Shown here piece by piece: positions 4,001 to 24,395 of a DNA stretch of 64,000 bases. The stretch is from Psilocybe cubensis (Eukaryota), in NCBI GenBank assembly GCA_017499595.2, contig CM039000.1:2170001-2234000 (forward strand), given 5' to 3'. The first letter of the stretch is position 1, and every line of letters begins with the position of its first letter. The notes beneath the pieces were generated by a model. It saw only the letters and a list, made by a program, of their open reading frames with translations, ran no database searches and was not told where the DNA came from. The position numbers and the translations under genes were made by a program.

Positions 4001-6735
4001 TCAAACTGCACTTAAAGATCAAGGTCAGGAGCTGGAGAGACTGCGCGCGGCGTCTACCCAGCGTAGGACCGCTGACGAGGCTGAGATAGCGAAGCTCAAT
4101 GCTGATTTGAAGGATCAGAAGGCGGAGTCGTCAAGGCTAACGCGTGCTGTTCAGGAGCTTGAGGGACAGTTAACTGATGGTATCGACAGAGAGAACCGTA
4201 TCGTTCAACTCAACAACGATCTAGACGCGAAGACTGCAGAACTGAAGAAGTCCAGGGAGGAGTCAACCTCTCATGCCCAGCAACTTGAAAATCGCATTGG
4301 TGACTTACAGGCTCGTCTCCAGGAGTCTGACAGCAAAAGGGAGAAATTGATTCAAGCACAACAATTATCAAGCCATCGCGAGAATGTTTTCGCTTCAGAA
4401 CTCCAAACTGTGCGTGAAAAGCGCAGTGAGCAAATTAAAACGCTTAACGCACGAGTTCGAGACCTCGAAAAGGAGTTGGAACAAGCCGCGACCAACTCTC
4501 GCGATTCACTTAGTAAAGAACGGGAGCGATACCAACAGATGTCCGTTGAGTTTCAAAAACAACAAGCAGCGCTATCTCAAACAACTGAAGATCTCAGTAC
4601 TGTCAAGGCCGCTCTTGAAAAAGAATTTGAGGACCATGGTAATACCAAGTCACTGTTGGAGCTTTTACAAAGCGACCTTGTGGACTCTCAAAAAGCCATC
4701 TCAATTCTTAACAGTCAATTAGAGGCCACCATGGCTGACCACATCGAATTTGGAGAGGAAGCGCAAGATTCGGACTCGGTAATTACTTCTAATTGTATCT
4801 TTTGATGTATATTCAATGAAAACTCCATAGGCGATGGACCCGGATGCACCAGAAAGTACTCCGTCGGCGACTGGAAAATCTCAAAAAGCGGCGGGCAAAC
4901 GTCGTCAAATGTCGATGATGCCGGATACCACCCTATATACGCTTGTAAGACAATTAGCGGTGTTGTAGCTTGGCCACATGTCGCTAACAATGTCCTGCAG
5001 ATGAATGATATGCCCAAAGAATGGCCACAGCGTTCGCCCTTTTCAAGGTTATCAAAAAAACTACCAGGAAAGTGTTTCCAGCCAACACCGGATATCGTAG
5101 GCAGCACACCTGTCTATACGTTTGTAAGATACCGACTACCGCCACTTTATTTGGTATAACTGAAGTCAAATATCCTTTAGATGAACCATAGGAACGGCGA
5201 CCTGCAGGTAAATATGGAGCCAGAAAATTCAGCAGAACGACCCACCTTTTCAAATTTTTTTAACCAAACGGAATTTACTCCCACTCTCTCTACCTCTGCG
5301 AACCGTTCTTCGCCCGTCCGAGACGGTGACCTGGCCTCTTCTTCCAATCCAGGGCCATCAATACCCAACAGATTTTCAAAGCCGGGTCACTATCGAAGAG
5401 GTAGAGCTACACATCAATCTCCACCTCCACCTTCCAGTGCTATACCCAGATCTGGTCGAGACGATGTGCGAGGAGTCGAGGCTTCGACAGCCTTCCATGC
5501 AGATACTCCGGCAACGGTCGCTGACCCCTCTGTGGTTCCACCTCACTCTGTATTCTCTTCGACGCCTCCTGTCACTCCTGTTCCTCCTGTTGCCTCAGTA
5601 TCTGCTGCTGAACGTGCTTTTCAAGAAAGAATATTGAATACGCTAAGCACTCTGTCGAGTGATGTGAGAGGCGTCGTTTCGGACGTGCAAGAACTTCGGT
5701 CTAATGCAAATACACAACCTGCAACCCCTCGTAGGAGGATTCCAAACAGGAAACCTTACTCTCCTTACAAGCAAGCTGGTCCTGTTCGTCCCCGCTCAGC
5801 GGACAGAGTTCTTATTCTAGTAGTATTCTTTTCGCCTCCACATCATCCATTGACTGAATATGATTTTTTAGAATGCCAGCCGGCAGTTACAACAATATCT
5901 CCTCGGAATATCCGAAGATGACGACATCTTCATAATGGATTCCATTCACATTGCATCACCAGCCGAAGTAGATAAGTTCGAGAATTCGCTACGAGACCCC
6001 CCACCATTGGAACCTCTTCAACTTCACTTCGACCAAGTGAAAGTGAAATGGAACGCTTATCTTGCGGACCTCTTTGCTGAACAGTTCTTGCGATTACACA
6101 GCAATCTTAATGCTACTGCCGATCAAATCAAGGAACACTTCATGGCAAGAGTGCAAATGTTTCGTGAGAAATTGATTTCCATCGTTCCAAGGCCAGGAGA
6201 AACCAGCGAACAATGTTTCGATCGCGTAAGGGAGGAACGTCTAAATGCCAATCGCAGGAAGCGGCGCCGCACTAGGCAACGTAATGTATGTCAATATCTG
6301 TTTCCTTACACTTACACAATTTCTTTGCTAATGTCGGAGAAGTTGTATGTGGACCGTTATAGTAACTGCATAGATGCCGGTCGTCATGATATTGCAGATG
6401 TCGTCTTGACACTTGGCGAAGATGGAATGAGCGAAGACGAAACAGACGGAGAAGATTCCACAGTCGTCCTTTTGACGCAATGGCGCAACCCAAAGCTCCT
6501 GACTCCATTAAAGATCGCTGATAGCCTGCGACCGGCTACAAGCGTCAATGGAACCAGACGACCAGGTAGCCGACCCCTTAAACGCAGAAGACTACAATCC
6601 GCACGGGAAGGTTATCAACCAGCTCCAGATCAGCGTCCAGAAAATTATTACTATTCTTCTTGGCGGGCCTGCTTATCTCGTTATGATATAGCGCTCTTGA
6701 AAATGAAAGATGCAAAACCATTTTTCGGGGAGTAG
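1008..6735 (+). CDS. Large multi-exon protein: long repeated coiled coil, Pro/Ser-rich linker, C-terminal domain with LGEDGMSEDETD..QWR motif
   Basis: ORFs 705-1370, 1352-1600, 1665-4805, 5181-5921 and 5935-6735 are co-oriented and can be joined by short GT-AG introns (e.g. 1338-1393, 1756-1811, 4780-4830). Could be two genes. Confidence 0.65.
1059..1214 (+). repeat. 78-bp tandem duplication (26 aa, SPTEQMDITSSDD..RNHPGPSQTPQ x2)
   Basis: Units 1059-1136 and 1137-1214 are nearly identical. Confidence 0.95.
2100..4445 (+). repeat. In-frame 672-bp (224-aa) tandem repeat: two full units plus rearranged partial units
   Basis: Unit starts at 2100, 2772 and 3444. Identical antisense ORFs at 2388 and 3060 are offset by 672. 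Further sub-unit copies run to ~4445. Confidence 0.95.
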
Positions 6736-8123
6736 GCGTAGAATCACTTTTTTAAATCAACTCGGATATTTCCTGTCACAAAGATTCTAGCTGTTAATCT
6801 CATGCTTCTATGTATGTACAAAGATATATTCACAATGCATCGCACGTTATTCAGTCCTTCGTCCAAAATGCGGTTAAACCAGAAAGATCTCCGCTTTCAT
6901 AAGGACAGCCAGACAAACGGCTTCAACGGTTAATAATTGACTTTACGCTTATGTAGTCCGCGCGATACTCAGAAATATAATTGACCTGGAAAATGGGAAT
7001 TACAGGGGGAAGATCATATTAACTAGCAAATGCGCAAACGACATCTATTTTTACATGCCAACTCTTAGGCTAGGATGGGCATTGCTCTCAACATCAAGGA
7101 TCACAGTAGGTAAGCGTGCAGGCAGCATGCAAAGATCACTAAATAATAAATCAATAAGGGTTGCATCAGTTGTCTGCTCTGGGGTGTATCTTTTCTACGG
7201 AAATGGTGCTAGAACCAAATGGGATCGACCTGTAATAGGAAATGCACCGTTCTTGAGACAGATTGAAGGTCCTTCAAATATAACCAGGGCGTTGGTTATG
7301 GTAACGCATAGACTGAATAAAGAGGGGCTCACAATCTATAATCGCAGACTTGAATTCTGTCCTTGCCCGAAATTGGACTCGAAATAGCGTGCTAAGGAGA
7401 AGTTGTAGATCAAAACCTGGTGCTTAAGAAAGAGAGACAGAAGACGAAAAACGTACTCTCGCGAAATGATGACCTTCTGTATATGTCATGGTTTGCCCTA
7501 AAACGTTGATGCAACCGATGGAATGGAGAGGACACAGCAAAGGACGGGCGTTGCAACTCTGTGTGAGGAGTGAGTACTGTGCGCAGCCGTCTTCGTTCAG
7601 CCACGTACATTAATGTTGCCCCAGTTTCCCGCTCGAGCCTACACGTCTCCACGACTGAAGTACATGCGTTCGTGTCGGGCGACGATGGACCCCTCGCTGG
7701 CCATCCAGGTTCGACGACTTGCTAGCCAAAGTTTGGATGTGGCAAATCAGTGGAAGCGTCAAGGTAAGTGAACCTGCTACTTACTTGATTGGTATTTTAT
7801 CGTGCACTCTCAGCGATGCTCGTTCTGCACAGAGAGAAGGATGCGAATGTCATCCACCTGCGCAATGTGCATGGAGGATATGGGAATCAGGGTCTGTCAG
7901 GTATATCAGCGAATGCCATGGGACATGCGACGTAAACAGACTTACCCAGTCATACGTCTGCGTATACGCGCTCTACACATCATGCAATGCAATTCTGATA
8001 ACCTATTCCCATCCAGAGGGCCCTATCCGTGCGAAAGGGGTTGTGGAGTTGAGTTGGAAGGAACACCGGTATCCGAACGATGACAAGTCCGGGATCTTGT
8101 TTGCTTAATAGCGCATAGTGCGG

Positions 8124-8793
8124 ATCGTTGGTGTTCGGGATAGGAGATGGGCTATACTATGTAAGTTACTACAGAAAATTAGGTAGACAGAACGAAACAT
8201 ACCTGTGTAGAACAAGAGGAAGGAAATGGTGAAACGAACGACTTGAGTGAGAATCGTGTGCGTCTAATCGCATGGTTAGCAAACGGCGGGTACACTGGAG
8301 TTGCGACTTACCAGACATGCTTCAAAACTTTTGCGATGTCTTGTTCGCTGACCTGTATCTGCGCTGAATGACTGACCCAATATACAACACTGTGCAGAAA
8401 ATTGTGTTACTTACGGCGAGCGTAGAGATCTCATACGTGCTTAACATCTGTGTTGGCACTTCGATTACACCTCACGCACAATATCATTCGGTCCCCATTT
8501 CGCTCCCTGTAGTAGTATTTGTATTATTTACATGGTACACTACGCTAGACTGCCTACATGGATAGCAGCGCTACTCGGTCTATATGTGCTACTTCACCCG
8601 CTAGATGAGCATGGTTGGAACAGAAGAAGAAGAAAGCGTGAGAATATGGCCAGCACGCCAACAAGTACCGCAGAAGTTCGATGCCGCTCATGCCGTCGCC
8701 AAATTGGTGATGCGCGTGATTGGTGGCACGGCATCAGCGGCATCAAACTTCTGTCCTGTATCATGGCGATTTTGTGACGGTGTGACGCCTTTC
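8124..8793 (+). repeat. Left arm of ~670-bp inverted repeat
   Basis: Reverse complement of 11474-12143. ORFs 8368-8565(+) and 8532-8777(+) are identical to 11702-11899(-) and 11490-11735(-). Confidence 0.97.
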
Positions 8794-8967
8794 ATCCTGT
8801 CCCTCAAATGCGGCGCGTTGTATCGTATGTAAATTGGTTAAATGATGGACACAATTCATGTGCTAGTATTATACGGAAGCGTAGGTCAGAACTGTATTTG
8901 CTATCAGCGGAGAGAAAATAGTGTTTCCATTCATGATACGTTATTGATCCATCCACCGAAAATGAGT

Positions 8968-9437
8968 TTAAAATAGAAAATGAAGTCTGGTAGATAAGTC
9001 CCCGCTTTCATACCGTATTGAATCTTCCAGCATCCCATCCAAATAATCGACTTCAAAATATCCAGGCATATGACCCCGCGTACACTTAGGAGTTCCCCCA
9101 GATTTTCCAGCCGACGGACTCGCATTTCCCTTTTCTTTGAACGAAAAGAGCACATTCTTTAACGCATCCTTGACCTACGAGAATGTTCGTCACGATACTT
9201 GTAAGGACAATCAAGAAAAACACTTACAGCGAGGTATGGCCAAAATATTAATGAGTGATCCACCTCCAAGTGTTCTCCCTGTTGCGAAAGAAACCGCGAG
9301 CGTCGGATGAACTTGATTTCTTCCGGAGGGTTTCGCGGAACACATAGGGGTGAGAGCTGAGAAAGTCGAAATTCGATTCTCGGAGTGATGAGTGGAAGTG
9401 GCGCTTTATTGAACATTTTTGCTATGAGAGGTGCCAC
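8968..9437 (-). CDS. Small hypothetical or degenerate gene in the inverted-repeat spacer
   Basis: ORF with PLPLITPRIEF followed by possible intron(s). No recognisable domain. Confidence 0.25.
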
Positions 9438-11473
9438 AACTGGGTTTGGGGCAGTCTGTAAGTTGCGATGGAGGTGTATGCAATCAAGGATTCACGACGC
9501 TTTATAAGAAGCAAGAACAAAGGCAATCTCCGCGACAAAATATCCTGACCAATCTTGACAAAGGTATTAACTAAATGAGCGCTTTATTCGCTCAACACCC
9601 ATCTGAACATAGAAAATGACCTACCAATGAGATATATAGAAGCTAGAGAAGGTCATGTATTTCTACATACCCACACTTACCCCGGAATGCGAGATTTTGG
9701 GAAGGTGATTTCATGATTTCAACTGGCGGAGATCATCAATGATCAATGGGATAATATATAGTTTTAATATCCACTGTCGGTCATACCGCCATAACAACGT
9801 TTATCGTCATTATGACGGCGCCAAAGGGCGTGATTACGTGGCTGCATGAGCGACATTGGAATTGTTTGCTATGTCAAAGCGCTCCTGCGACAATGCCATC
9901 TTTATCCCCTTTCCCATAACTCTTCGACAAAGAGAAACAAGATAAGATGGATCTTTGTTCAGAAAACATTTAAAAGGTCGATAGGTTAATATGTACTCAG
10001 TACGATATTTCCTGCTGTAAGAAACTTCATGATGCCCGTGACGAGGGAAGGCCACGATGTAATTCTGAAGCATATCGTCATCGTTTCGTGGCTGATCCGT
10101 ACTAATCATTCCTACAGGTCGATAACCACAGTGATGACAATGACTATCAGAATCAGAAGCAAATGATCGAAGCAAAGTTGAAAGAACTAGTAAGTATTTT
10201 AGAACATCATTTTATTAAATCATGACAAAACTTTGCGATGACAGATTTCAATGATGCGGGCTGTATTTTGTGACACCCATGGTAGACGCGAAAACGACGA
10301 TGAAGACGGAAAAAATAGTGAACAAGACGAGCAAGACGAGGACTTGGATCCTTGGCCGGCGAACAGCAAACGCTCAAGGCGCGTTCAATGGCGGCTGGGG
10401 CGCAAAACTAAGCGATCTCGAAGGAATTTCAGGCGCAGAATGAGGGGTGCTTCGCGCTCTCCCAACAAGCTCCGCGGGTCCGACTCCGACTAGTGGGCAG
10501 ACAACGAGGTATGGGGTTGTGCGCTGGGCAATGGCCGTGTTAGACTGTTGAACGAGATTTTAAACCACCCACTGGCAGGACAAATTGGGGTTGGAAAGTC
10601 ACCGAAGATTATTATATCAAGTAGAGCTTGGGTTAATAAATTTAGTATATCAATTGCAGATATTGATGAAGCGACATACTTCATAGATTGAAGAGAATTA
10701 TTAGACGGGAACATCTCGCGTGTTCGAGAGAGTAAATTTGGCTTACAGTACGTGTAAAACAATTGAGACTGGTGCCGCTCGAATACCTGATAGAAAAAAG
10801 ACGGAGCCAATCTATAGTTGCATAAGCAGGAGACTCGACGGGAGCCATGTGCAAATCCTGTATATTCCAAGTCCCGATATCGTGAAATCCAAATTAAAAC
10901 GGCAACCTGCAAAGAGGGTACCTCGCAGACCGGGTGCTTACAGTAGGCAGCGTCGTACAAAACATAAAGTTATGGCAGCATTCAACGTTCAATTCTTGAA
11001 TGTAGGTGGGTGCGTCGTTGAATAAGTGAGGTCTGTAAAGCAATGAGGCGGCACATGTGCTGTAGAATATGTTTCCTGCACTGATAGCAAAGATGATTCC
11101 TCACCTATGTTTGTGACGCTCGAATACGGGTCTGGCAGGCGAAGAGGCGGCGGGTGTGCTGTAGAAGGTGTTCTTGGCTTGTGTTTCCTGCCTGATAGTA
11201 ATAAAAATACGATTCGCACCTATGTTTCTGCGTAATTCACTATCCAAATGAATTGTAGTTCCTCCTCGTTCTGTGTCGCTCACCCGACTATTTCCTCTGC
11301 CCTTCCAAGCCGGGTCTATGTCACTTGAACTAAAATTGTATTACTAGAGTACGCAGCTAGCTAAGTTTATGGTATTAGAGTCTACACTAAAGTGCTACTA
11401 CTACAGTAAGCTCGTATGCGAACCATCTCTACGTACGACGTGCTTCATAGGAGTGAGTGTTGAGAGAGAGGTG

Positions 11474-12143
11474 GAAAGGCGTCACACCGTCACAAAATCG
11501 CCATGATACAGGACAGAAGTTTGATGCCGCTGATGCCGTGCCACCAATCACGCGCATCACCAATTTGGCGACGGCATGAGCGGCATCGAACTTCTGCGGT
11601 ACTTGTTGGCGTGCTGGCCATATTCTCACGCTTTCTTCTTCTTCTGTTCCAACCATGCTCATCTAGCGGGTGAAGTAGCACATATAGACCGAGTAGCGCT
11701 GCTATCCATGTAGGCAGTCTAGCGTAGTGTACCATGTAAATAATACAAATACTACTACAGGGAGCGAAATGGGGACCGAATGATATTGTGCGTGAGGTGT
11801 AATCGAAGTGCCAACACAGATGTTAAGCACGTATGAGATCTCTACGCTCGCCGTAAGTAACACAATTTTCTGCACAGTGTTGTATATTGGGTCAGTCATT
11901 CAGCGCAGATACAGGTCAGCGAACAAGACATCGCAAAAGTTTCGAAGCATGTCTGGTAAGTCGCAACTCCAGTGTACCCGCCGTTTGCTAACCATGCGAT
12001 TAGACGCACACGATTCTCACTCAAGTCGTTCGTTTCACCATTTCCTTCCTCTTGTTCTACACAGGTATGTTTCGTTCTGTCTACCTAATTTTCTGTAGTA
12101 ACTTACATAGTATAGCCCATCTCCTATCCCGAACACTAACGAT
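11474..12143 (-). repeat. Right arm of ~670-bp inverted repeat
   Basis: Matches 8124-8793 with only isolated mismatches seen (ttcaaaac/ttcgaaac; ggtgttcg/agtgttcg). Confidence 0.97.
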
Positions 12144-12345
12144 TCCTACTGACATCTCTGGTTGGCTGCCACTTCACTTAGGCTACTTCTACAACTGTTT
12201 CACCTCCGTTTCGCGGCGGAGCGGCACAGAAAAGACGAGAGCATTGTCGTCCATGTGCGTCACCTCGCCAGGCAAAAGTCGTGCCCATCACGACGCAGTT
12301 CACTAGGACGCTCAGCGACATCTTTGGCGTGCTCGACTACTTAAG

Positions 12346-12548
12346 TTGGAGCTTGTTCACCGCTGCCTTCGACGAGGAACGCTCTGATTCTCTAGTGAGG
12401 TTGGCGTATGGTCTCCTCAGTGATCTGGCCAAATACTACTCGAACGGACGGCTTAAGCAGCATTCCTGTCCAATTGGCTTACATCAAACTGCGATCTGGA
12501 AGTTGTATTCCAGATGATACCATGAACACCATGCCTCGGGCATGCGAG
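12346..12548 (+). pseudogene. KAP95: Frameshifted C-terminal fragment of importin beta-1
   Basis: Across frameshifts it reads LELVHRC/FDEERSDSLVRLAYGLLSDLAKYYSNGRLKQ/FLSNWL/LRS..IPDDTMNTMPRACE, resembling the final HEAT repeat of fungal Kap95. Confidence 0.7.
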
Positions 12549-12627
12549 ATTTTTCGAGGGTATTTTTTGTATCCTTTCCCTCTTACTTACGACTTAGGCT
12601 TAGGGACTGCGGACAGTGACGTTAGAC

Positions 12628-13300
12628 GGGTAATTCGGCGGCTTTTACAACAATTATTTTTCTCCCTGTTGTTCGTATTATAGCTGTTGCTACAATCTGG
12701 CTAGGAATATTGCCATGCATAACAGTGTGGACGTCTTTTCCATGGGAGAATCCGCGTACGTACTCATCCGGGATCTCAATCTAATATCCACTTCTGATAG
12801 CTTCCTCTATCGATAGAATTCGCTACGAAGCCCCTGGGCCGCCATCCAACAGCATTTTTTCTCCAAGGTTTCTTCACATCCGGCATGGTTAGCGCCCTCG
12901 GCAGACATATTCACCGGCCTGATCATCGCATCGCTCATTGTACTCATCTTCGTTGCCGTCTTCCTCCTCCGTGAATGGATGTCGCAGAATGCTCGCCTGG
13001 GCGTATTCGAAGAGGAAGAGCTCCCCGATCTGCCCCCCGTTCACGCGCCTCCACCGCAACCACAACTGCAACATCAACCCAGGCTCGTCCGCCATTTTGC
13101 GCCGCTCGACCCTGCCAGCCTGAACCTTGAGCGTGGAGGGAACGCGCCGCTTTCAATGAGCGTCAGATCGAGGCTCTACGTATGGAGGCAATGCGTCAGA
13201 ATCTGGACACAAACATCGCCGTGGACCCCAACAGATGGCGAGCAGACGCCCAAATAGCCGCTCTTAGGGATAGGAAGAAAAAGATGAATGCCAAAAGCTT
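12628..13300 (+). pseudogene. DOA10: Internal fragment of ERAD E3 ligase Doa10/MARCH6, RING absent, frameshifted
   Basis: RRLLQQLFF/VRIIAVATIWLGILPCITVWT/FSMGES, a retained intron at ~12758-12800, then ADIFTGLIIASLIVLIFVAVFLLREWMSQNARLGVFEEE. Right end approximate. Confidence 0.8.
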
Positions 13301-14249
13301 CAACCCACATCATACGGTACGCGATGAAAACCAGGGAGAAACGGACCAGGAGGATGTACAATTTGAATTAGAGCAAGCGAGGAAGAAAAAATTCAACCAA
13401 CATGTTACAGTGGCGCAGGACGGGGACGAGCCTGGGTTAGTAAGTCCCAGCGAATCGGACGATACAGAGGATGATGAGGACGATTTCCATGAAGACGATG
13501 AAGTCGACAATGAGGGACATGGGCATGGAAACGGGCGTAGACATCGACGTCCACATCCTCTCCGACGGCCTCATTTCGAAGAAGAAAAAGACGACGAAGA
13601 CGACGAGGAAGACCAGGCAAAGTTGTGCAGTGGGGTGCTACCACCACCACCAACCCCTTTTTGCGGGTTTTCGATTCGACTGTTGACTCTTTGTTTGACT
13701 TTGCCTTTCGATCTGAAGCGGGGAGAATGGCGTGGTATACCCACTGCCCACTTACACCTACACCAACACCGTTTATCGACTATCGACCTTCACATTGGCT
13801 TTTGGTTTGCCAACCCAGTTTGTGTTCTACGGTTACACCCTACGCCTACACCGACGCTGACACTAGCGCCTCAGCTCATCTTACCTCACACCGACTTGCA
13901 GTACGCTCTGAACATCTTACACTGTTACACACCACATATCACACCATAGCATAGCATATCTTACACAACACCCACCAGACAAACTCGAATTCCGACTTAT
14001 AAACCCAAACCCAAACACGAAATCAAGACGAAATGAAAGCACTAGACACGAACCTGTACACTCCCATCATCTCATCATCTCATCGTGGCGCTTTTGGTTT
14101 TCCCCACTGTATGATGTCTGCGTCTACTTTAACCATTCACTTCGTCCCGCCCACACCGACGTCATCGTCGTCGTCTTCATCCGCTGCATCGTCCGCGTCG
14201 CTATCCACGCTGCCGACATCGTCGAATCCAACCCCCGCTCGTCGACTCT

Positions 14250-14301
14250 CACCACCACCACCACCACCACCACCACCACCACCACCACCACCACCACCAC
14301 C
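14250..14301 (+). repeat. (CCA)n microsatellite, ~17 units
   Basis: Directly visible. Confidence 0.95.
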
Positions 14302-14399
14302 CGCGCCGATCTTTCTATCTCTACCACCACCACCACGGCCGCCGCGCACCTACTCCCATGCACCGACCACCATCACCTGTGATAACAAACACGACACTG

Positions 14400-14620
14400 C
14401 ACACACCAGCACCCACACACAACCTCACGCTCATACGCACCGCCGCGGAGCTCATCGAACTCGACGTGAAACTGCGCAGTACGCACCCGGGCCTCAAAAT
14501 CCCATCGCTGCCCATCGACCCCGCCGGTCTGCCCCTCGCGCAGCAGAAGAAGGGGAAGGAGAAGAAACGAAAGTCGACGTTTTTGAACACGCTTTCGCGG
14601 CTGGCGTCGCCTGGGGGTGG
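14400..14620 (+). pseudogene. Gene fragment, possibly PX-domain-like
   Basis: HNLTLIRTAAELIELDVKLRSTHPGLKIPSLP resembles the PX pattern R..xF.xL.xxL...P..xP.LP. Embedded in low-complexity DNA. Confidence 0.3.
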
Positions 14621-15667
14621 CAAGGGGATGGGGATGAGTATGGGCATTGGGATCGGGAAGAAAGGGGGGAATACACCGCTTGTGATGGCTCCTGCCAAGT
14701 AGGGCCCGGATCCGTTTGGCTCGTTTGGTGCGATGACGCTTAGTTGGAGTGTTAGTGGGAGTATTGGAGGGGATGTGAATGGGTGGTCTGCCGCGCCGTC
14801 CATGACGAATCTAGCGTCGACTGCGTTGTCCACTGACGCGCTTGATAGGGATGGGGTCATCTCGACAGACAGAGAGAAAGAGGACTATTGATCACCCGGA
14901 AGGCGAGGACGCTCATGGTCGTGTGGCCGGCGGTATTATCGAAGAGGATGAAATGGAGGTGGAGAATGTTAGCTCGCAACGTCAGCAACATCTGGCAAAG
15001 TTGAATAATGCACTCAAAACGACCACCATCATCGGCGGCCTATAGGACGCGCGCGGGTTCATGCGCGTGCGGCTTGATGAGGTGAGGCAGAAGATGGACG
15101 CCGAGGAACAGGCGAGGGATGTGTGAGTGTTTTTTTATTTTATTTTTTTATTTCTTTCTTTCTTTCTTTTCTGGTTTTTGGGGTTTTTTGTTTTTGGAGT
15201 GTGGTTTTTAGAGAGTATGTTTTTTGGATTGTTTTTTTTGTGGGTTTATTTGGATAGATTTCGGTGGAATGGACAGATTCCAGTTTCGGAGGTTCTCTAT
15301 TCCATCCATCTTGCAGAGGTACTTTGAACGAGCACGGTTCTGGTTCTTGTTCATGTTGTTGTTTGTTCGAGGGTGTATCCTTCGCCTTCGTCTTCATCTT
15401 CGCATAGATCGTTTTGGCCGATGCATGCATGTACGGGTTGATTGATACGGGTGGATAGATGGTTCAGGACGGATAGCAGGATGGATAGAAGAACCGTCGG
15501 ATGGGCTTTTGCTTTTACTTTTATTTTCTTTGCTTTTATTGTATCCCATTCTTTTTTATCCTATTCTATTCCCATTCTTATCTCTAATTTTCTAAACACA
15601 ACTAACACCCCTTTTCCTCTTTTCCCTCCCTTCCCCTACACTTATTTAACTTACTACAACCTACAAG

Positions 15668-15803
15668 CCTCCGCACTCAATTCACCCAAACACACGAAGA
15701 CATCGCAACATCCTCCTCGCGCTGCTCCCGACGCTCTCGGAGCAGGTGCTGCGCGCGATGGATGTGGATGCGGTGAAGCGGGAGTTGCAGGCACGGTCGC
15801 GGG
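15668..15803 (+). pseudogene. PEX3: Peroxin-3 N-terminal-region fragment, frameshifted
   Basis: LRTQFTQTHEDIA/ILLALLPTLSEQVLRAMDVDAVKRELQARSR matches the Pex3 pattern LRRRFxQxQED..LALLPTL..QIL..MDVE....ELQ. A pyrimidine-rich intron end precedes it. Confidence 0.7.
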
Positions 15804-16549
15804 TGGGTAAAGGGAATAGGGAGCAGCAGGTGTTGGGGATTGGGAATGGGAATACACCAGCACAAGCACCGGCGAATAAGAGGAGTGTGTACCCACTTGC
15901 ACCGTACCCTTCCACTCCACCTCCGCCCCAGCCTCGTCAAACGCCTCCACAACAGGCTCAGGCTCAGCCCCAGCCTCATCAAACGCTTCACGCACCTGCT
16001 CACCATCACCCACACCAGCGCCCGCACCGTTCACACTCTCGCCGCCCGCACCCGTGTTCGTGCCGCGCGCCGCGTCGTTGCATTCCGCGTCGTTGTACCC
16101 GTTCGCCTGTTTCTTTGCACTCGCCGTACCTTTCGCTTTCAGGGACAGAGTCAGAGTCTATTTCCATCTCGCACGACACGCAGGAGATATCGTCGTCGTT
16201 TGTATCGGACAACGGGTCTGTGAGTCGTAGTTGGGTCGTTGAGGGTTCGGGTGAGGGTTCCGAACAAGGAGGTGCAGGGGAGAGAGCGCCATCGCCTGCT
16301 TTGAGCTCTGTTTCTGGTGTTTCCCGTTTCGCATTCGAATTCGACGGATGAAGGGGAAGGTGGGGATGAAGATGAAGATGGTACGTCACTTCTCTTTCGT
16401 TGTGGGAGTTTGATTTTATCTGATTAAGAAATGTGTATATGTGTAGGCAGAGAATGTGATTAGTGTGTATACGGACACTGATGCGGATGCTGTTGCGGTT
16501 GCGGATGCTGGAGCGGGAGGATCGGGATCGGATCGGGAGGAGCGGGCGT

Positions 16550-16840
16550 AGATGCGTTGATCACCTTCGCAGTGCCCTCCGATTCCCACAGTTCTCTTGC
16601 TGTTACTTGCGCCGGGCAGGGAAGTAGATCCAGTGCCCGGACTAGGTCTCTCAACCATCCTAACTATCGCTCTCCGGGGAGGGATGTCGTAACGTAGTAC
16701 TAGGATTAACCGCCTATATTTAATGGGAAGTACTCCTGTTTCAGAATAAAGAACTGCCGTTATCGACCTCGGACCCAAACCCAGTATTCGTCGCAGACAC
16801 TTGATCTGCACCTGTTCCAGGAGTCGTAGCAATGACCTGC
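16550..16840 (-). mobile_element. Non-LTR retrotransposon (LINE) fragment, post-RT region
   Basis: LEQVQIKCLRRILGLGPRSITAVLYSETGVLPIKYRRLILVLRY, then WLRDLVRALDLLP in another frame. RT catalytic core absent. Confidence 0.8.
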
Positions 16841-17352
16841 GATCGCTCCTTCTGTAAGTTCGCATATTGTCTGCGCTTTTTTGTTCGAAGCTGAATTTTG
16901 GAGCAGCTGGTGTATCCACACGACTGGCGCGAAGATGACTTTGTGGTCTTCCACAACCGTGGAGTTCTGCACACTGTCGTCGGTGCATGCCCTTGACCAG
17001 GTGCGCGCGTTCCACCAGTGCAACCTCGCTGCATAGGATGAGCCCATGGGCCCTTCAGCCGAAGACGTCCAAACCTATGCTTGAGTTAAGGCGGGTAATT
17101 TGCAAGACTTTCGTAGTCAATGGCATACCATTCCTCGATGTCTGGGTCGTGTCGTTTCCTCAGCATTTCTTGGAGCCTGAATTCCCCGTACCTTGTCAAG
17201 ATTGATCATCCCACTTGGGGAGGATATAGACACAGATGTTCCCGCTGGCATCGTCGAAGTCTATCGTGTGTTAATTGTATTGCCAAATAATAGACAGAGA
17301 AAAACATACTGCAAGGGTTATTAAAAAGTTGAGAGGAGATGTACCATCGTCG

Positions 17353-18170
17353 GCTTGCCGATAAGCAAACAGGGAAGACGAGTATTGGGAATATCTTCAT
17401 TGGTATGTAATTCTTTTCTCTTGCCGCGAAGGTGTTGAGCTGATGTCATCTTTTAATTACTTGCGTATAGCCGGTCTTGGGGCTGGAGTGACGGAAGCTG
17501 TTGCCATCGTGACGCCCATGGAAGTGGTGAAGATTCCTCTGCAAGCTCAACAACATTCATTGGCCGATCCTCTTGAAGCGCCTCGGTACCGTAATGCTGG
17601 TCATGCTGTGTACACCATCATTCGTGAGGAAGGAATCTCGACATTGTATCGTGGTGTCTCTTTGACGCCACTGAGACAAGCTACGAATCAGGGTACGTCT
17701 TCATTCGTGAATAGCCGAAGAACGCCTTTCTTAAGGCTTGTGTGTCCACCTTAGGTGCCAACTTCACCGCGTACCAAGAAATCAAGAAGCTCGCGCATAA
17801 GTACCAGCCAGACTTGGTCGAGCTACCATCCTACCAACACATGATGATTGGTCTTATCTCTGGAGCTATGGGTCCGTTCTCAAATGCACCAATAGACACT
17901 ATCAAAACTCGTACGTCCCTTTTTAACTACACTTTCTTAGCCTCTCTTACTCAAATCAATTATATCAGGTCTACAAAAAGCCAAAGCAACTCCAGGCCAA
18001 TCCTCCTTCCAGCGCATATTCGCGATCGCGGCAGATATGTGGAAGATGGAGGGCGTGCGGTCATTCTACAAGGGCATCACCCCCGCGTGCTGCGCGTGGC
18101 ACCCGGGCAGGCGATCGTGTTCGCGGTTTATGAACGCGTGAGCGGCGTTATTGAGACGATCAGCCCAAGA
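17353..18170 (+). pseudogene. SFC1: 5'-truncated, intron-retaining copy of mitochondrial succinate-fumarate carrier
   Basis: AGLGAGVTEAVAIVTPMEVVKI.LQAQQHSLADPLE..LRQATNQG/ANFTAY..GPFSNAPIDTIKTRLQK..PRVLRVAPGQAIVFAVYE with three introns. First carrier repeat missing, KIR>KIP substitution, and a 1-nt frameshift near 18080. Confidence 0.9.
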
Positions 18171-19259
18171 GTGAGAGAAGATCTCATCTCCACATGTATC
18201 CCTGCATGGTCATCCACTCTTCCTCCAACCCATGTTATCTCCATGGCTTCCAACGACAGGAGCGCGTCTTCCGAGACGATGATGTAGTCAATGACAGAGC
18301 GGCCTCCGTTGGCCTGACTGGAGGTCCACTGTGGGAACGGCGTTCGGTCGATTGGTGTCCCATTCACGACATGCAGAGAATTCTGCCCCATGATTTCCAG
18401 TAGGCGATTCCCTCTAGCAATGCAGGTATTATCTGGAGACACTCGTACTAAGTGCGATCCCGCTGCTTGTTGCAGGCCTATACGCGCGTTCAGGTCGCCT
18501 ATAATCATGTATGCCTTGGATCGCAAGACACAAATATTCGATAGCCTCCCCCAGCCATGTCTTAGGGTCCACATGCGTCCAAGATTCCCATCTGGAGTTC
18601 TCTGGCACAAGATACGAGCAGATTAGGATTAGGGATGGGAGCTCAAGGACCAGTATATCTGGGTGCATGATCTCGTCGCATATTCTATATTTTACAGTGT
18701 CCCGTATAATTACAGTGACGCCGCCCAGGGGGTGCCGCCATGGTCGCGATCGTGCCACTGGATGAAAACCGCGAGGTAGATCCAGAATATCCTCTTGCCC
18801 TGGCGCCATGTGTGTTTCCTGGAAGAAGGTAACATCATTAGATAGTACGAGATCCCTATACATTGGCGTATGGATTGATGCCGCGAGTCCTCCGTTGCAG
18901 TTCCAGGAGGCTACGCTGAATCTGGCGCTGTTTGTTTCTATCAGTGCCCGATGTGTGGAACCCGTCATCGCCGCTCTGCTGTTTGCGTATGCCCTGAAGT
19001 CCTGCGCATCCGCATACACCCGAAATCGGAGCCTGATGCGTCTCGCTTTCCTGGCATGCGTAACTGATACCAAACGTTCCATAGCTAGCCCATTGTCCTG
19101 CATCCATTCTCGCCCCATCCGCAGACGCTCAATTCTTTGGCATTGTAGTGGCCCCCGGAGAACATCTGTAAGATTGACGTCTCTTTCTTGCTGAGTTGCT
19201 TGTGTTGACGACATGCGTGGTGTGATTTCTGTTAGGACCGCTGTGAGTGGAGTTTCCAT
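18171..19259 (-). mobile_element. LINE fragment: AP-type endonuclease domain, frameshifted
   Basis: SWNCNG..FFQETH..YLVP../IIGDLNARIG..SVIDYIIVS..DDHA, split across ORFs 18429-19259 and 18128-18610. Confidence 0.9.
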
Positions 19260-19944
19260 GATAAGAAGAATTTGTTTTTGGTGATGGTGCGTGTTTTATC
19301 TCTTTTTTTTTCCTTTTCTTTTTTTTACTTCTTTCTCTATGTGCGTGTTTTTATTGACATTGACAGTCTTTTTTTTTTTCAATAGGATACCTTCCTGGAC
19401 ACGGAACCCGTACTGGGAGAGTTCACAGAGGAGGATCTCGAGCAGGAGCAGGATACCTACCAGAAGCCGCAGACGGACGCGGACCGCACGGATGGCGAAG
19501 GGTACGAGACAAACACGGCGCCGTCGCAGTCGCGCAGCTCGTCGATACGCATGGTACAGAGTCAGAGTCAGCTGCAGCAGGGACAAGGGCAGGACTGAGT
19601 CAGCAGGTGCCGGTGCAGCAGGTATCCAAACGGCAAACGCGCGTTAATTTGCCTCTAAAGGTGCTGACGACGCTTGTTTGGTAATAAAAAAAATGTTGTT
19701 TCAAGCTTCATGAAATAACATAGGCCACAGATGTCCGCGAATGTTAAGGAGTTTTATTATTCAGAAATGAGATTATGAGTCTTCAATGAGTATGATACAA
19801 ATATAGCGAATCAAATGGTAAAATTCAGGGATATATGTACAATAATACGAAGCGATAGCGATAAACCGAAAGCAACAAGAAAGCAACAAGAAAGCAACAA
19901 GAAAATGAAGAAAAGATAACAACAAGAAAAACCCGCCGGGGCGC

Positions 19945-20488
19945 CTAGTCGGTGCGGACAGGAGCGACATCGTATGTCTCGCACATTGCGAGATACAGGG
20001 CTCGCGCAGGGTAGGTGGCACGTATTTGGGCCTCGATCGCGATATCGTTGAGAACTTTCTTGCGCTCAAGTTCGAAGCGGTCGAGCTGAATTTCGTGCGC
20101 TTCCGATGTACCAGGCCGAGTACGTGCGCTTCGATTGTCGAGAATTTTTTTCAGGGTTTTAATCTCCTGGCGAACGCGGATGAGTTCCTCGAAATCGGCG
20201 TCGTTGGCTGGTGAGTGTTGAGCCTCCATGTCGCTGATCAACTTTCCTCCTGAAAGGAGCGGTAAGACGCTGTTCAAAGCTACAAATACTCACTGGCATA
20301 CCGCTACGATTTCGCAGAACAACTGGCGCTTCGCTATTTTTGTTGATGTAGCGAGCTATCGCCCCGAAGGCGGGCCCTCCGTACGTGCATAACCACTCCA
20401 CGATCTCGCATCCCGACGCGAATCCGTATTTGATGCCGTTGACGAAGGAAACGATGGTGGAAAAGATGTTGGAGACTATTGTGGACAT
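19945..20488 (-). CDS. Small two-exon orphan protein (~165 aa)
   Basis: MSTIVSNIF..NRSG joined by a GTATGC...TTTCAG intron (~20301-20250) to GKLISDMEAQ..VAPVRTD*. The reading frame is preserved across the splice. Confidence 0.55.
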
Positions 20489-21022
20489 GGTACGAATATC
20501 GATGTTGATAGAGGGCGTGATGAGCGAGGACGATGAATGAATGTGTTTGAGCGAGTGAGAGCGAGTGTGGTGAGTGTGGTGAGTGAGTGTGAGTGAGTGT
20601 GGTGAGTGAGTGGGAGTGTGGTGAGTGATAAGAGACTGCGAGAAAGTTGTTCTGAGAGACATCAATTCATAGAAGGCAATGGCAAACGATGGCAAACGAA
20701 TAAAATACATTGATGTGAGTATATACATTGCTACTACAGTGAAATAGAGACTCAGGTTCTAGAAATAAGAAGGGAGAAAAGCAGCTTTGACTGTGTAGCA
20801 TTTGTCAATTTATGTGTATGGTAGTAGGACACACCCGAGCCCAAAAAATACATATATTTCACTCGAAAATACGTTTTTTCTCGCTGAATAAACATGCGTC
20901 ACTGATACAGCGTTATTGAATGAAGAGCGTGTTCTCGTCGCTGAATACACAAGCGCCTAAGTAGCGTTGGTGAGGTGTGTCGCTTATCACCGAGACGCCA
21001 AAATAGCCGTAAAATCGCTGGG

Positions 21023-21097
21023 CGTGTCGCTCAACGCGCGCCGATCGCGCGTCAAGCGCGCGCTGATCGCGCGAGGAGGCGCGCGCTGAGCGGCACG
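21023..21097. repeat. GC-rich imperfect hairpin/palindrome
   Basis: CGTGTCGCTCAaCGCGCGCC ... GGCGCGCGcTGAGCGGCACG, with internal GATCGCGCG repeats. Confidence 0.8.
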
Positions 21098-21113: not shown

Positions 21114-21515
21114 CTGTTTGACAATCTGTTTGATTTCAAACAGATATTATGTTTGATTTCTTACACAACTTATGTTTGATGTTTATGGTCGATAACATAC
21201 AGAATATACGGATGATTTCATGCACAAATTATCAAACAGGAGTTATATTTGGAATCAAACACTATTTATCAAACACAATGTACGTTTGTTATCTTACAGC
21301 GAACTTGACAGATTTTCTGTCAAGCCCGTGTTCTTTGACAAACAGGCGTCAAACATACGTTGTGTTTGATATCACATGCCTATCAAACATAACTTATGTT
21401 TGATGCTTGTTTGTCAGCAAACACAACTTATGTTTGACATCAAACATCGTCTTCTTACATAATATGTGTTTGATTGACGATGTTTGACATCAAACATGTA
21501 TCGGAGCCCGCAGTG
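21114..21515. repeat. Subterminal-type array of TGTTTGA/TCAAACA motifs in both orientations, ending in CAGTG
   Basis: About 17 motif copies by manual count. Palindromes ATCTGTTTGA-tt-TCAAACAGAT (21124-21145), ATCAAACATAA-c-TTATGTTTGAT (21382-21404) and TGTTTGA-ca-TCAAACA (21431, 21481). Confidence 0.9.
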
Positions 21516-21674: not shown

Positions 21675-24395
21675 ATGGCGGACTCCCAGATTGTAGTGGC
21701 CCCTGCCAATACAGTCACTCCCCCTACCACTCCTATCAACGCTGCTCCTCCGCCCACTGTTGAGCAAACACCGCTCGCTTTCAAATCTACTGCCAACGCT
21801 TTCGCCATGGAAGAACCACTTCTAGACGACGTCTACCTGGAAATCTCTGAAGAAACTAGAGGCCATTATCTTGTTGGAATCTCTCCTCAGAATTTTCTCG
21901 ACAGCTTTTTACCTTGGAAACAACCCACACCAGAAGATGCCCCAGAGCCCGATCGGGTCTCGCTTTTGCAATCCGTGCCACCTATCGAGAAAGCCAGGAA
22001 GGAGGAAGTGATGTATAAACCTTTTGTGCGTCTTGAAATCTTTCGATGTACATGACTGCTTTACTTACCTTACGTTCTAGGTTGACGCTCTCAATGGATG
22101 GGTTACCGGAACAGATAATCAACAGTCTCTTGTCTTCAAACGTTTCAACAATCCAGACAGTACATGCGGCCGTATGAATGTCGATATAGCTACCTATTGG
22201 GAGAAAGATACACCATCAACGTCCACGTCATTTGCGCATCAACAAACCCACGAAGAATTCAAGGTTAGCCATCGATATGACGCTTTCGCGCACGCCCTTG
22301 ATGAGGGTCCGGAAGAGGAAGAAGAGGATACAAGTCAAGAAGATGCAGATCCAGCTGCCGTAGCGGGTCCTCAATTAGAGGATGATGATGACGTCGGACT
22401 CTTTGAAGTCAAGACTGAGGATGTAGACGACAAACTGCCCGACCTGACAGCTGATGTCGAAAAGGATACCCAGATTTCCAACCAAACCCGTGGTCAAATT
22501 GCAGCGTATGCTGGTGTCGTGCTCTCTATGGCCTTTCGATCGCATTTCTTTTCTATGTTGATCATCGGTAAATACGCTCGTTTCATACGCTGGGACCGGC
22601 GCGGCGCCATTGTCACCCATAGATTTGATTACACTAAATCCCCCACTTTAATATTCAGCTTCTACCGCCGTTACGGACAGCTCACTCATAGAGAGAGGGG
22701 TTTTGACCTGTCTGCCAAACCATGGCAAGGTGCTGTTCCTCAAAACGTTTGCGAAGCATTCGACAGTTATTATCGACGGTCATGGCACGGTGGATCAAAA
22801 TTTAATCACCGAACAGGCAAGGACGAGCCTGCCGAGCCTGCCTCTCGACAGCGTTTCTTTACGATAGCAGTCAAAGATAGAAATCCTGATCCCACTGCTG
22901 CACATCTGGAAGAAATATACTTTGTCCCGGCCCCTGCGTTCAGACGCACATGCCTCTCTCCCTTTACTCGTGCAACCCGACGCTGCCTTGCTTTTTTTGA
23001 TGCGCCAGACAAGAAGGATCAACAAATGTGCTTTATGAAGGATTCATGGCAGGAAACCAGCGCTCGATCAGCTCCAGAGGCTGACATCTACCGCAGACTA
23101 CATAGTCATGGCGTGGAGAACATTGCTTCGATGCGTTTGGGTGGCGACGTTGACGACCTCGTCACCGTTACGCAGGATTGGTTTCACGTACTCTCGCAAT
23201 CTGGAAAATACCAGAAGATGGGACATCTGGTTTGCCATCGCCTTATTCTGAACACTGTCGCCCGTGATTTGTCGACTTTTGTTTGGTGCAAGGTTCTGCT
23301 TTCTTGCCTTGCTGATGCTATGGAAGGTGCGTTTCTTTGTCTGGATGCAGCAGCTACGTATTCTGATTTTCTTGGCCAGCTGCTCAACAAGCTTACAAAG
23401 CTGGAGTTCTCCATCGTGATATCAGCGCAGGCAATGTAATGATTGTTAGAAATCACGAAACTGGTGAATGGAAAGGCATACTCATAGACTGGGATATGTG
23501 TCTACTTTGGGAGGAACAGAAGCTTATCGGAGAAGTACGTACTCAACGAACTGTGAGTACCCTCTTTTCTCGTATCCCAGAGGATGTCCGTTAATGGTAT
23601 GTCTAGGGTACCTGGGCTTTTATCGCTGCAGAGCTATTGATGCTCCCGGAACCAGGAGCAGCGCCAGTTATTCATTCTCTATGGCATGATATGGAATCCT
23701 TTTTCTGGGTTCTTCTCTACCAGGCTTTACGTTATCTTCGACACAACCTTCTACCCGAACAAACATATCGTCGCATGAAAGCATTGTTCCTTGATCCAAT
23801 GCGAGTTGGCGGACGGACCTATGGGGGTGACGAAAAAGAAAACACTCTCCAGTTCTGCTCGCTGAAGACGCAACGGAAGAAGGTAGCCTCGTTTACGATC
23901 TCTGGGCTAAACGACTTTTTGGAAACCGCTGGCCATTTTCTACATTCCCGTTACCAACCCAAAAATGAACTTCCCGACTGTGATCTGAATAATCCAGACG
24001 ACAAGTGGCTACCTAATCTTCTTCGTTCTACCGCTGATAGCATGGCGCCCTTAAATGTGACCCGGACCGCATTAGCGTCTCCTACAAACGACTCTCAACC
24101 CCCAGCTGACAGAGCCCTGTGGAAGAATGCAAGTGTAAAGGACGCAAGTATCGACTTCTTCATCAACACCTGGGTAGCGGATACCAAGGACACCAAGGCG
24201 GCTCATAACCGCCACTTTCAATCAGTATCAAACTCAGTGATCAATTTTTTGGATGGTCTTCGTGTTAGCCACAGTAGTAAACGTGCACGCGACGACATTG
24301 ACGACACGCCAGATACCAAGGCAAAGACAGAAGTTAGGCCCACGGTCAAACTTGAACATGTTCCTCCTTCGACCAAACGGGTTCGACGTCGCTAG
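21675..24395 (+). CDS. Fungal-type protein kinase (FunK1/Pkinase_fungal), 4 exons
   Basis: RGQIAAYA, RFIRWDRRG, MKDSW, HRDISAGNVMI, LIDWD, RTGTWAF, HDMESFFWVLLY. Introns ~22026-22080, 23327-23379, 23553-23606. Confidence 0.92.

Follow-up and report, generated by a model that had tools for sequence, protein, structure and literature searches.

A stretch of 64,000 nucleotides (nt) from Psilocybe cubensis (assembly GCA_017499595.2, contig CM039000.1, positions 2,170,001 to 2,234,000 of the forward strand; hereafter the window, in whose coordinates all positions are given) harbors, around 12346-18170, a patchwork of truncated host-gene pieces, among them fragments of Doa10, Pex3, a TauD/TfdA-type dioxygenase gene and Sfc1. 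Introns retained in two of these pieces support a template of DNA, or in any case one other than mature mRNA, and the patchwork recurs in the genome in near-identical form. It appears to be the non-coding passenger of a repeat that spans 13 kb or more and was recently amplified to about 7-9 near-identical copies on several chromosomes.

Host-gene fragments retain introns that parent transcripts lack

Four public runs were compared with positions 9000-21000 at a likeness of at least 80%. Together with profile and protein searches, this comparison resolved the following host pieces:

12308-12470 (+): probable C-terminal piece of Kap95 (importin-beta), from a below-cutoff Pfam match and a weak PDB match
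12630-13418 (+): Doa10 piece in three frames, without the RING-CH part, with about 91% nt identity to the parent transcript
13419-13606 (+): unnamed acidic piece of another expressed gene; a 3797-nt contig matches 13418-13606 with 15 differences and 12 gaps
14057-14884 (+): possible PX-domain piece of an expressed gene, with an in-frame stop at 14700
14885-15125 (+): exon-like host piece with an in-frame stop, loose ends of parent contigs at 14902 and 14987 and no Pfam match
15713-15817 (+): Pex3 piece, corresponding to positions 63-97 of the Peroxin-3 profile
16828-17098 (+): 3' terminal piece of a TauD/TfdA-type dioxygenase gene, scoring 27.4 bits with Pfam TauD (cutoff 27)
17336-18181 (+): Sfc1 (succinate/fumarate carrier) piece, amino acids (aa) 95-314 of a 319-aa ortholog, with three retained introns

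The Sfc1 piece contains two Pfam Mito_carr repeats (52.3 and 42.7 bits), and the best protein matches of its exon come from Psilocybe cubensis itself, with 100% and 99% identity. It is truncated at both ends, and its end at 18181/18182 is the point at which similarity to orthologs stops in 80 fungal metagenome loci. Three GT..AG introns are kept (17403-17470, 17693-17754 and 17911-17968), all of them skipped by spliced contigs of the parent. One nt is deleted close to the C-run at 18080-18084, the frame shifts after 'GITP', and a carrier-signature residue, R, is replaced by P. An earlier reading of the same letters, made from the sequence only, had proposed a truncated, frameshifted and intron-bearing + strand fragment of Sfc1, and this description is borne out in full.

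The TauD piece was absent from the list of fragments in that sequence-only reading, which likewise did not mention the acidic piece at 13419-13606, the - strand LINE (long interspersed nuclear element) endonuclease debris at 18182-19300 or the multi-copy nature of the stretch. The TauD piece lies about 240 nt from the Sfc1 piece, is of similar age and retains a 53-nt GT..AG intron at 16854-16906. The contig of its parent starts at 16907 and has a loose end that matches the window's upstream exon across this intron. Against 16907-17098, it shows 6 differences and a TT insertion, corresponding to a 2-nt deletion at 16987 in the piece.

Contigs without these introns were found in run X13, which is presumed to be RNA and of which 21 contigs matched the compared region. 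Its spliced contigs match the pieces at 89-99% identity, and none of the 21 reaches a likeness of 99% or more to the mosaic, a result in which contigs can attest presence but not absence. As they skip the introns and none is this close to the mosaic, we regard them as spliced transcripts of the parent genes. Four introns are thus retained in the mosaic, three in Sfc1 and one in TauD, that the spliced parent contigs skip, which supports copying at the DNA level; capture of DNA rather than retrocopying had been proposed before and is supported.

For Doa10, an intact P. cubensis protein of 1702 aa (P0123) aligns with its residues 10-282 to 12630-13418 (tblastn), and the similarity of the piece to this parent has an E-value of 8e-39. 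The alignment passes through frames 3, 2, 1 and 3 at 42-86% identity, with 86% in the last block, and the best protein matches of the Doa10 open reading frame (ORF) are likewise from P. cubensis (98-99% identity). The piece begins at about aa 79 of RING-CH-bearing orthologs, and because these align only from there, the RING-CH part is missing. Hence, a truncated and frameshifted Doa10 fragment on the + strand could be confirmed. The retained intron that had been read into it could not, since the parent's spliced contig runs collinear with 12863-13419 (51 differences, 7 gaps) and the changes of frame are insertions or deletions. This parent is an intact and separately located gene, as it has a separate accession on a 3.52-Mb contig that is unrelated to the accessions of the chimeric models described below. 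A PDB sequence search with the Doa10 ORF gave only chance matches of low complexity. After 'HVTVAQ', the P0123 protein diverges from the window sequence, and at 13418/13419 the Doa10 parent contig also diverges and the different, spliced contig of 3797 nt takes over. This switch of parent contig therefore places a junction within the Doa10 coding region.

The Pex3 piece scores above the Pfam cutoff for Peroxin-3 (29.7 against 27.6 bits), and the assignment is firm over about 35 residues; 15713-15817 alone yields 27.5 bits. Its upstream extension (14884-15123 and 15669-15773) has no Pfam match. A word-index search of the Pex3 ORF against longer proteins returned nothing, and a PDB sequence search returned nothing useful. 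By eye only, 14885-15125 may be the Pex3 5' end; in the frame of 14884-15123 a stop stands between GGL and DARG.

At the Kap95 piece, 36 residues match Pfam TPR_IMB1 at 22.6 bits (E-value 5e-5), under the cutoff of 29.1, and a PDB importin-beta is matched with an E-value of 0.05 over residues 798-832 of 882, the expected C-terminal position. Parent-type letters at 12416-12425 are present in spliced contigs. A phmmer search with the Kap95 ORF against 1.84 billion representatives gave seven matches, three of them local models and four others (P0253 to P0256), and no importin. The two of these four that were inspected, P0253 and P0256, are cysteine-rich repeat proteins matched by chance. The Kap95 assignment is therefore probable and weakly backed.

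The PX-like piece, on the + strand and derived from an expressed gene, aligns with contigs of its parent apart from indels at 14065, 14387 and 14390, and 27 letters differ over 14603-14858. Its identity as PX is weak: Atlas PX clusters (0.84-0.85) are the sole support, the piece has no Pfam match, and the PDB sequence search gave nothing useful.

A mosaic of unrelated host-gene fragments, as the sequence-only reading had it, is thus retained for Doa10, Sfc1 and Pex3, with TauD added, and is weak for Kap95 and the PX-like piece. All host pieces within 12346-18170 share the + strand, as had been stated. Frameshifts had been assigned to Kap95, Doa10, Pex3 and Sfc1 alike and were recovered for Doa10, with its three frames, and Sfc1, with one. 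Further lesions of the host pieces are the Sfc1 truncations, the TauD deletion and the stops at 14700 and in the 14884-15123 frame.

The patchwork recurs in near-identical copies

Over the compared 12 kb, 29063 reads of 151 nt give a mean depth of about 366x; the 1632 million letters read would lead one to expect about 35x if the genome size is assumed to be about 46 Mb. Contigs of the locus in run X6 have a k-mer depth of 362-558, compared with 50-68 for parent-type contigs. Among the raw reads of run X15, the parent-type letter was carried by 32 of 258 at 12416, 28 of 342 at 12896 and 35 of 320 at 14785, counts in which parent reads with many mismatches may be under-represented. Overall, read depth amounts to roughly 7-11 mosaic copies per parent copy.

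The copies are also visible as gene models. One annotation contains five accessions of a chimeric model, in which a repeat arm is fused to the Kap95 and Doa10 pieces, and at least six accessions of a truncated Sfc1 model. At four loci, distributed over at least four contigs, a model of each kind lies within 2-3 accession numbers of the other; for the models, contigs of up to 4.68, 4.19, 4.15 and 3.13 Mb are listed. Over 204-373 aa, paralog models are identical or depart from each other at a single residue. The joins between arm, Kap95 and Doa10 and the join between Sfc1 and the LINE (see below) are common to the paralog models, so a search for the same junctions elsewhere, as suggested earlier, was positive. 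These chimeric database models are predictions of a gene caller and not proof of RNA.

Upstream of the captured pieces lies an inverted repeat:

8117-8807: left arm, upstream of the mosaic, 691 nt at 99% (684 nt at 99.1%)
11460-12150: right arm, within which the annotated chimeric gene models begin

The 691-nt repeat encloses 2652 nt and sits entirely upstream of the pieces. Its arms show a depth of about 600-700, compared with about 320 in the mosaic. Two models from other copies, P0243 and P0251, join exons matching 9416-9001 (-) to exons from 11884 onward (+); other copies therefore have the inner segment inverted or lack the left arm.

Sequence beyond the left arm also occurs in several copies, as 206 loose-end reads match it, and depth is still high at 21000, where the depth data, which span 9000-21000, end. 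The unit is thus at least 13 kb long, with ends beyond the measured part. The ratio of observed to expected CpG is about 1 and flat across the window and therefore speaks against a long decay; being about 1 everywhere, it was discarded as a marker of repeat extent.

Comparison of the window with the X15 reads over 9000-21000 revealed 220 places of difference, with 62 C>T, 70 G>A, 12 T>C and 18 A>G changes. Of the residue differences among paralog models, 6 of 7 are also of the C-to-T type. This bias suggests deamination in other copies.

Divergence from the parents suggests at least two waves of acquisition

Comparison with the parent contigs gave the following divergence for the individual pieces:

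Sfc1: 14 of 592 letters differ (97.6%)
TauD: 6 of 192 letters differ (96.9%)
Doa10: 51 of 557 letters differ (90.8%)
PX-like: 27 of 256 letters differ (89.5%)

From these values we infer at least two waves of acquisition, an older one that would comprise the Doa10, acidic and PX-like pieces at about 9-10% divergence and a younger one of TauD and Sfc1 at about 2-3%, because divergence differs about fourfold and differences in parental constraint would, by our own estimate, explain perhaps 1.5-fold.

Besides the host pieces, the block contains LINE debris and two further gene-like pieces:

18182-19300 (-): LINE 5' part, with the endonuclease domain split over two overlapping frames and the reverse-transcriptase part absent
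19386-19598 (+): terminal-exon-like piece of a further expressed gene, as judged by sequence context, beyond 12346-18170
19776-20758 (-): gene-like piece with a lower-depth relative elsewhere in the genome, as judged by the match of a 707-nt contig

The LINE endonuclease stays narrowly under the Pfam cutoffs, with 24.1 bits for Exo_endo_phos_2 and 23.1 bits for Exo_endo_phos. A segment at 16660-16840 (-) is, by a sequence motif, possibly a C-terminal remnant of a LINE ORF2; no Pfam or PDB match confirmed it. The younger pieces, TauD and Sfc1, lie between the endonuclease piece and this putative second LINE-like piece. Spliced contigs over 19025-19826 have a depth of 9-25, and the 707-nt contig, with a depth of 50.5, matches 20111-20771 with 73 differences. 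Furthermore, the mosaic has a 124-nt stretch at 16317-16442 that neither a DNA contig of lower depth (70.7) nor a spliced contig contains; in the spliced contig, 9 other letters take its place.

For the order of events and the mode of capture, we propose that truncated and mutated pieces were copied as DNA from four or more expressed host genes, probably from at least seven, and joined with dead LINE debris. The pieces would have entered by repair-type copying, that is by template switching or by abortive gap repair, in which a break is filled with ectopic DNA. The younger TauD/Sfc1 layer might then represent a break in an older LINE that was filled with such DNA. As the last step, the whole block 8040-21000 would have been amplified very recently. 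Taken as one account, with the patchwork, the two waves, the recent amplification and the proposed capture and spread, we hold this to be the best explanation and judge its prospects of being right or wrong to be balanced.

Possible modes of spread

For the spread of the block, we slightly favor a non-autonomous DNA transposon with ends outside the examined part over segmental duplication, and place its chance just short of even. The seven to nine near-identical copies on several contigs, the co-oriented host pieces and the little decay point to a burst of the transposon type.

Several observations weigh against this reading or against parts of the account as a whole. Among the window's 291 ORFs of at least 75 aa, no transposase, RepHel, integrase or reverse-transcriptase domain was detected. 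Between the flanks of the mosaic, no inverted repeats above chance were found within the window, and hairpin-plus-CTRR motifs occur at chance level (18 on the + strand and 19 on the - strand per 64 kb). With neither flanking inverted repeats nor transposase or RepHel in the window, and Helitron-like ends at chance frequency, the Pack-TIR or Helitron carrier put forward in the sequence-only reading remains a candidate. The ends of the repeat unit did not appear within 9000-21000, to which the depth data are restricted. Moreover, two loci share an identical accession spacing of n-3, n and n+10, with two Sfc1 fragments around one Doa10-chimera and identical proteins, which looks like the duplication of a larger block, and one copy is gene 25 of the 4.68-Mb contig, possibly near a chromosome end. 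Finally, the identities of Kap95 and PX are weak, and the second LINE-like piece, on which the layering leans, is a possible one and unverified.

Subtelomere-style segmental duplication as the mode of spread is a strong contender that we nevertheless place somewhat below even. In its fuller form, a patchwork built by break repair in a repeat-rich region would have been spread by ectopic recombination, through segmental duplication of the subtelomere type or another; this we consider possible and rather doubtful. Duplication of this kind would suit the size of the unit, the lack of transposon hallmarks among the features searched for, the repeated n-3, n, n+10 spacing, the copy at gene 25 and the differing arrangement of other copies at the 691-nt inverted repeat. 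It would also suit a telomere-like dodecamer, TTAGGCTTAGGG, at 12594-12605 between the Kap95-like and Doa10 pieces; this motif has 3 matches in the window when a single mismatch is tolerated, against 0.17 expected from shuffles. In contrast, seven to nine copies of at least 99.7% identity, spread over at least four contigs, appear burst-like in a genome of some 46 Mb, the window's copy adjoins the ordinary housekeeping genes CRM1, CCT and CDC27, and there is no telomere array within the window.

A variant of the favored transposon reading is in our estimate unlikely: a Pack-type or Helitron-like element would have captured, one after another and in one orientation, pieces of at least seven housekeeping genes and would have multiplied very recently to 7-9 copies, its Sfc1 and TauD pieces, at 97-99% identity to the expressed parents, being close enough for silencing. 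Less likely again is a non-autonomous Helitron that gathered its pieces through bypass of a 3' terminator, as in maize. Its appeal lies in host pieces that are co-oriented, short and in some cases intron-bearing, and in a hairpin followed by CTAG (12275-12306) that ends directly before the first of them. On the right side of the high-depth block, GC-rich palindromes (CGCGCGCCGATCGCGCG and similar) with CTGA and then T are found at 21030-21090 (candidate 21030-21067), and in the Agaricales, Helitrons that end in CT[A/T]G and carry subterminal hairpins are on record in a Pleurotus study (PMC4289320). However, with 18 such end motifs on the + strand, hairpin-CTRR counts do not exceed chance, and the candidates at 12306 and 21030-21067 are therefore leads only. 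The base after CTAG at 12306 is G and not T, no RepHel was found among the window's ORFs, and the Pleurotus study states that its helitrons carry whole genes and not host gene fragments (PMC4289320).

Two further explanations are highly improbable. A simple segmental duplicate of parents that neighbor each other in this order elsewhere, named in the sequence-only reading as an outcome that would overturn it, conflicts with junctions that cut into the genes (the Doa10 piece stops at aa 282 of P0123, and the Sfc1 piece starts at aa 95), with the fourfold range of divergence and with the 80 fungal Sfc1 loci, of which 36 have at least 3 kb and 21 at least 8 kb of upstream sequence: these loci, from other species with at most 75% nt identity, match the Sfc1 ORFs only, the full Doa10 protein has no match near Sfc1 in them, and the short TauD, Pex3, Kap95 and PX pieces reach E-values of about 1 or worse, a comparison of low power for these short pieces. 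Retrocopies or LINE-mediated transduction of mRNA, for which LINE debris adjoining the younger pieces could be cited, are at odds with the four introns kept (unless unspliced pre-mRNA served as template), the absence of poly(A) tracts at the piece ends and the antisense orientation of the host pieces relative to the LINE pieces.

Sequence around the patchwork

Normal gene space, rich in introns, makes up the right half of the window (34-64 kb), with genes for NAC, GT28, ADH, CRM1, a PUA protein, SRR1, CDC27, CCT, a rhodanese, a GDSL lipase, EI24 and histone H1. The left half comprises repeat-like and lineage-specific sequence, two fungal-type kinase genes and an HSP90 gene.

Upstream of the inverted repeat, 1563-4802 is an open frame of 1080 aa for a coiled-coil protein, with 672-nt tandem repeats of up to 99% identity. 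The ORF at 5872-6732 belongs to an uncharacterized family confined to Basidiomycota (Atlas clusters 0.95-0.97; DUF8263 in a minority of members), while an exact look-up of the ORF at 5181-5918 in the protein collection gave no match. Downstream of the patchwork, two tandem Pkinase_fungal genes (21843-24130 and 25226-27495) with about 69% DNA identity are each split across several frames. The HSP90 coding sequence at 28276-30575 (-) is distributed among five ORFs, and one pair of them overlaps in different frames; introns or a frameshift could account for this. A cluster of TGTTTGA/TCAAACA at 21115-21497 holds 17 of the 31 occurrences in the window within 500 nt. Several of its motifs form short palindromes, and the cluster resembles the subterminal repeats of a DNA transposon or a miniature inverted-repeat transposable element; no second cluster is present within the 64-kb window.

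Discussion

A young, multi-copy patchwork with datable layers and living parents is well suited for asking how such patchworks assemble and whether the expression of the parents is affected. If the serial-capture variant named above is true, read-through or antisense transcripts of the repeat could feed RNA silencing directed against the Sfc1 and TauD parents. In addition, the copies give rise to at least 11 spurious gene models in one annotation, some of them named 'succinate/fumarate mitochondrial transporter', which inflate gene and family counts. No published description of this P. cubensis repeat was found in the literature, supplements lying outside the scope of the search.

Subtelomeric duplication patchworks consist of near-identical blocks on several chromosomes, with gene fragments and repeat debris. 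The P. cubensis repeat resembles them in its near-identical blocks on several chromosomes and in the telomere-like motif at one junction. It differs in that the window's copy lies next to ordinary housekeeping genes. Among mobile repeats, the Pack-MULEs, Helitrons and CACTA elements of plants are known to give rise to chimeric genes and small RNAs. Carriers of gene fragments are well known from plants and seldom described in fungi, where the cases mostly concern whole genes.

The non-autonomous Helitrons of maize (PMC3288121) likewise bring together unrelated, intron-bearing gene fragments in one orientation, acquired stepwise, amplified as a unit and non-coding. The P. cubensis unit is larger, resides in a basidiomycete and includes LINE debris and a 691-nt inverted repeat, and motifs like Helitron ends occur at chance level in the window. 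With Pack-MULE, Pack-TIR and Tgm-Express (CACTA) elements (PMC8277862, PMC1947982), it shares transduplication at the DNA level within a mobile repeat and the prediction of chimeric gene models. These elements are defined by terminal inverted repeats and target-site duplications; in the P. cubensis window, such inverted repeats were sought around the captured pieces and not found.

Among fungi, transduplication in Pyrenophora and the amplification of a housekeeping gene by a transposon (PMC3538342, PMC6710886) offer a parallel, as there too a repeat multiplies host gene sequence; the hosts are ascomycetes, usually one gene is involved and the carrier has been identified. Closer by host are the HELPO helitrons of Pleurotus ostreatus, which also belong to the Agaricales, reach up to 13.7 kb and carry and amplify host-derived sequence (PMC4289320). 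Their cargo consists of whole genes of unknown function together with RepHel, whereas that of the P. cubensis repeat consists of fragments of housekeeping genes, and the same report sets this whole-gene cargo against the capture of fragments in plants and animals. Since the Pleurotus helitrons described there carry whole genes (PMC4289320), a patchwork of gene fragments in an agaric would be a rather uncommon representative of a kind already known.

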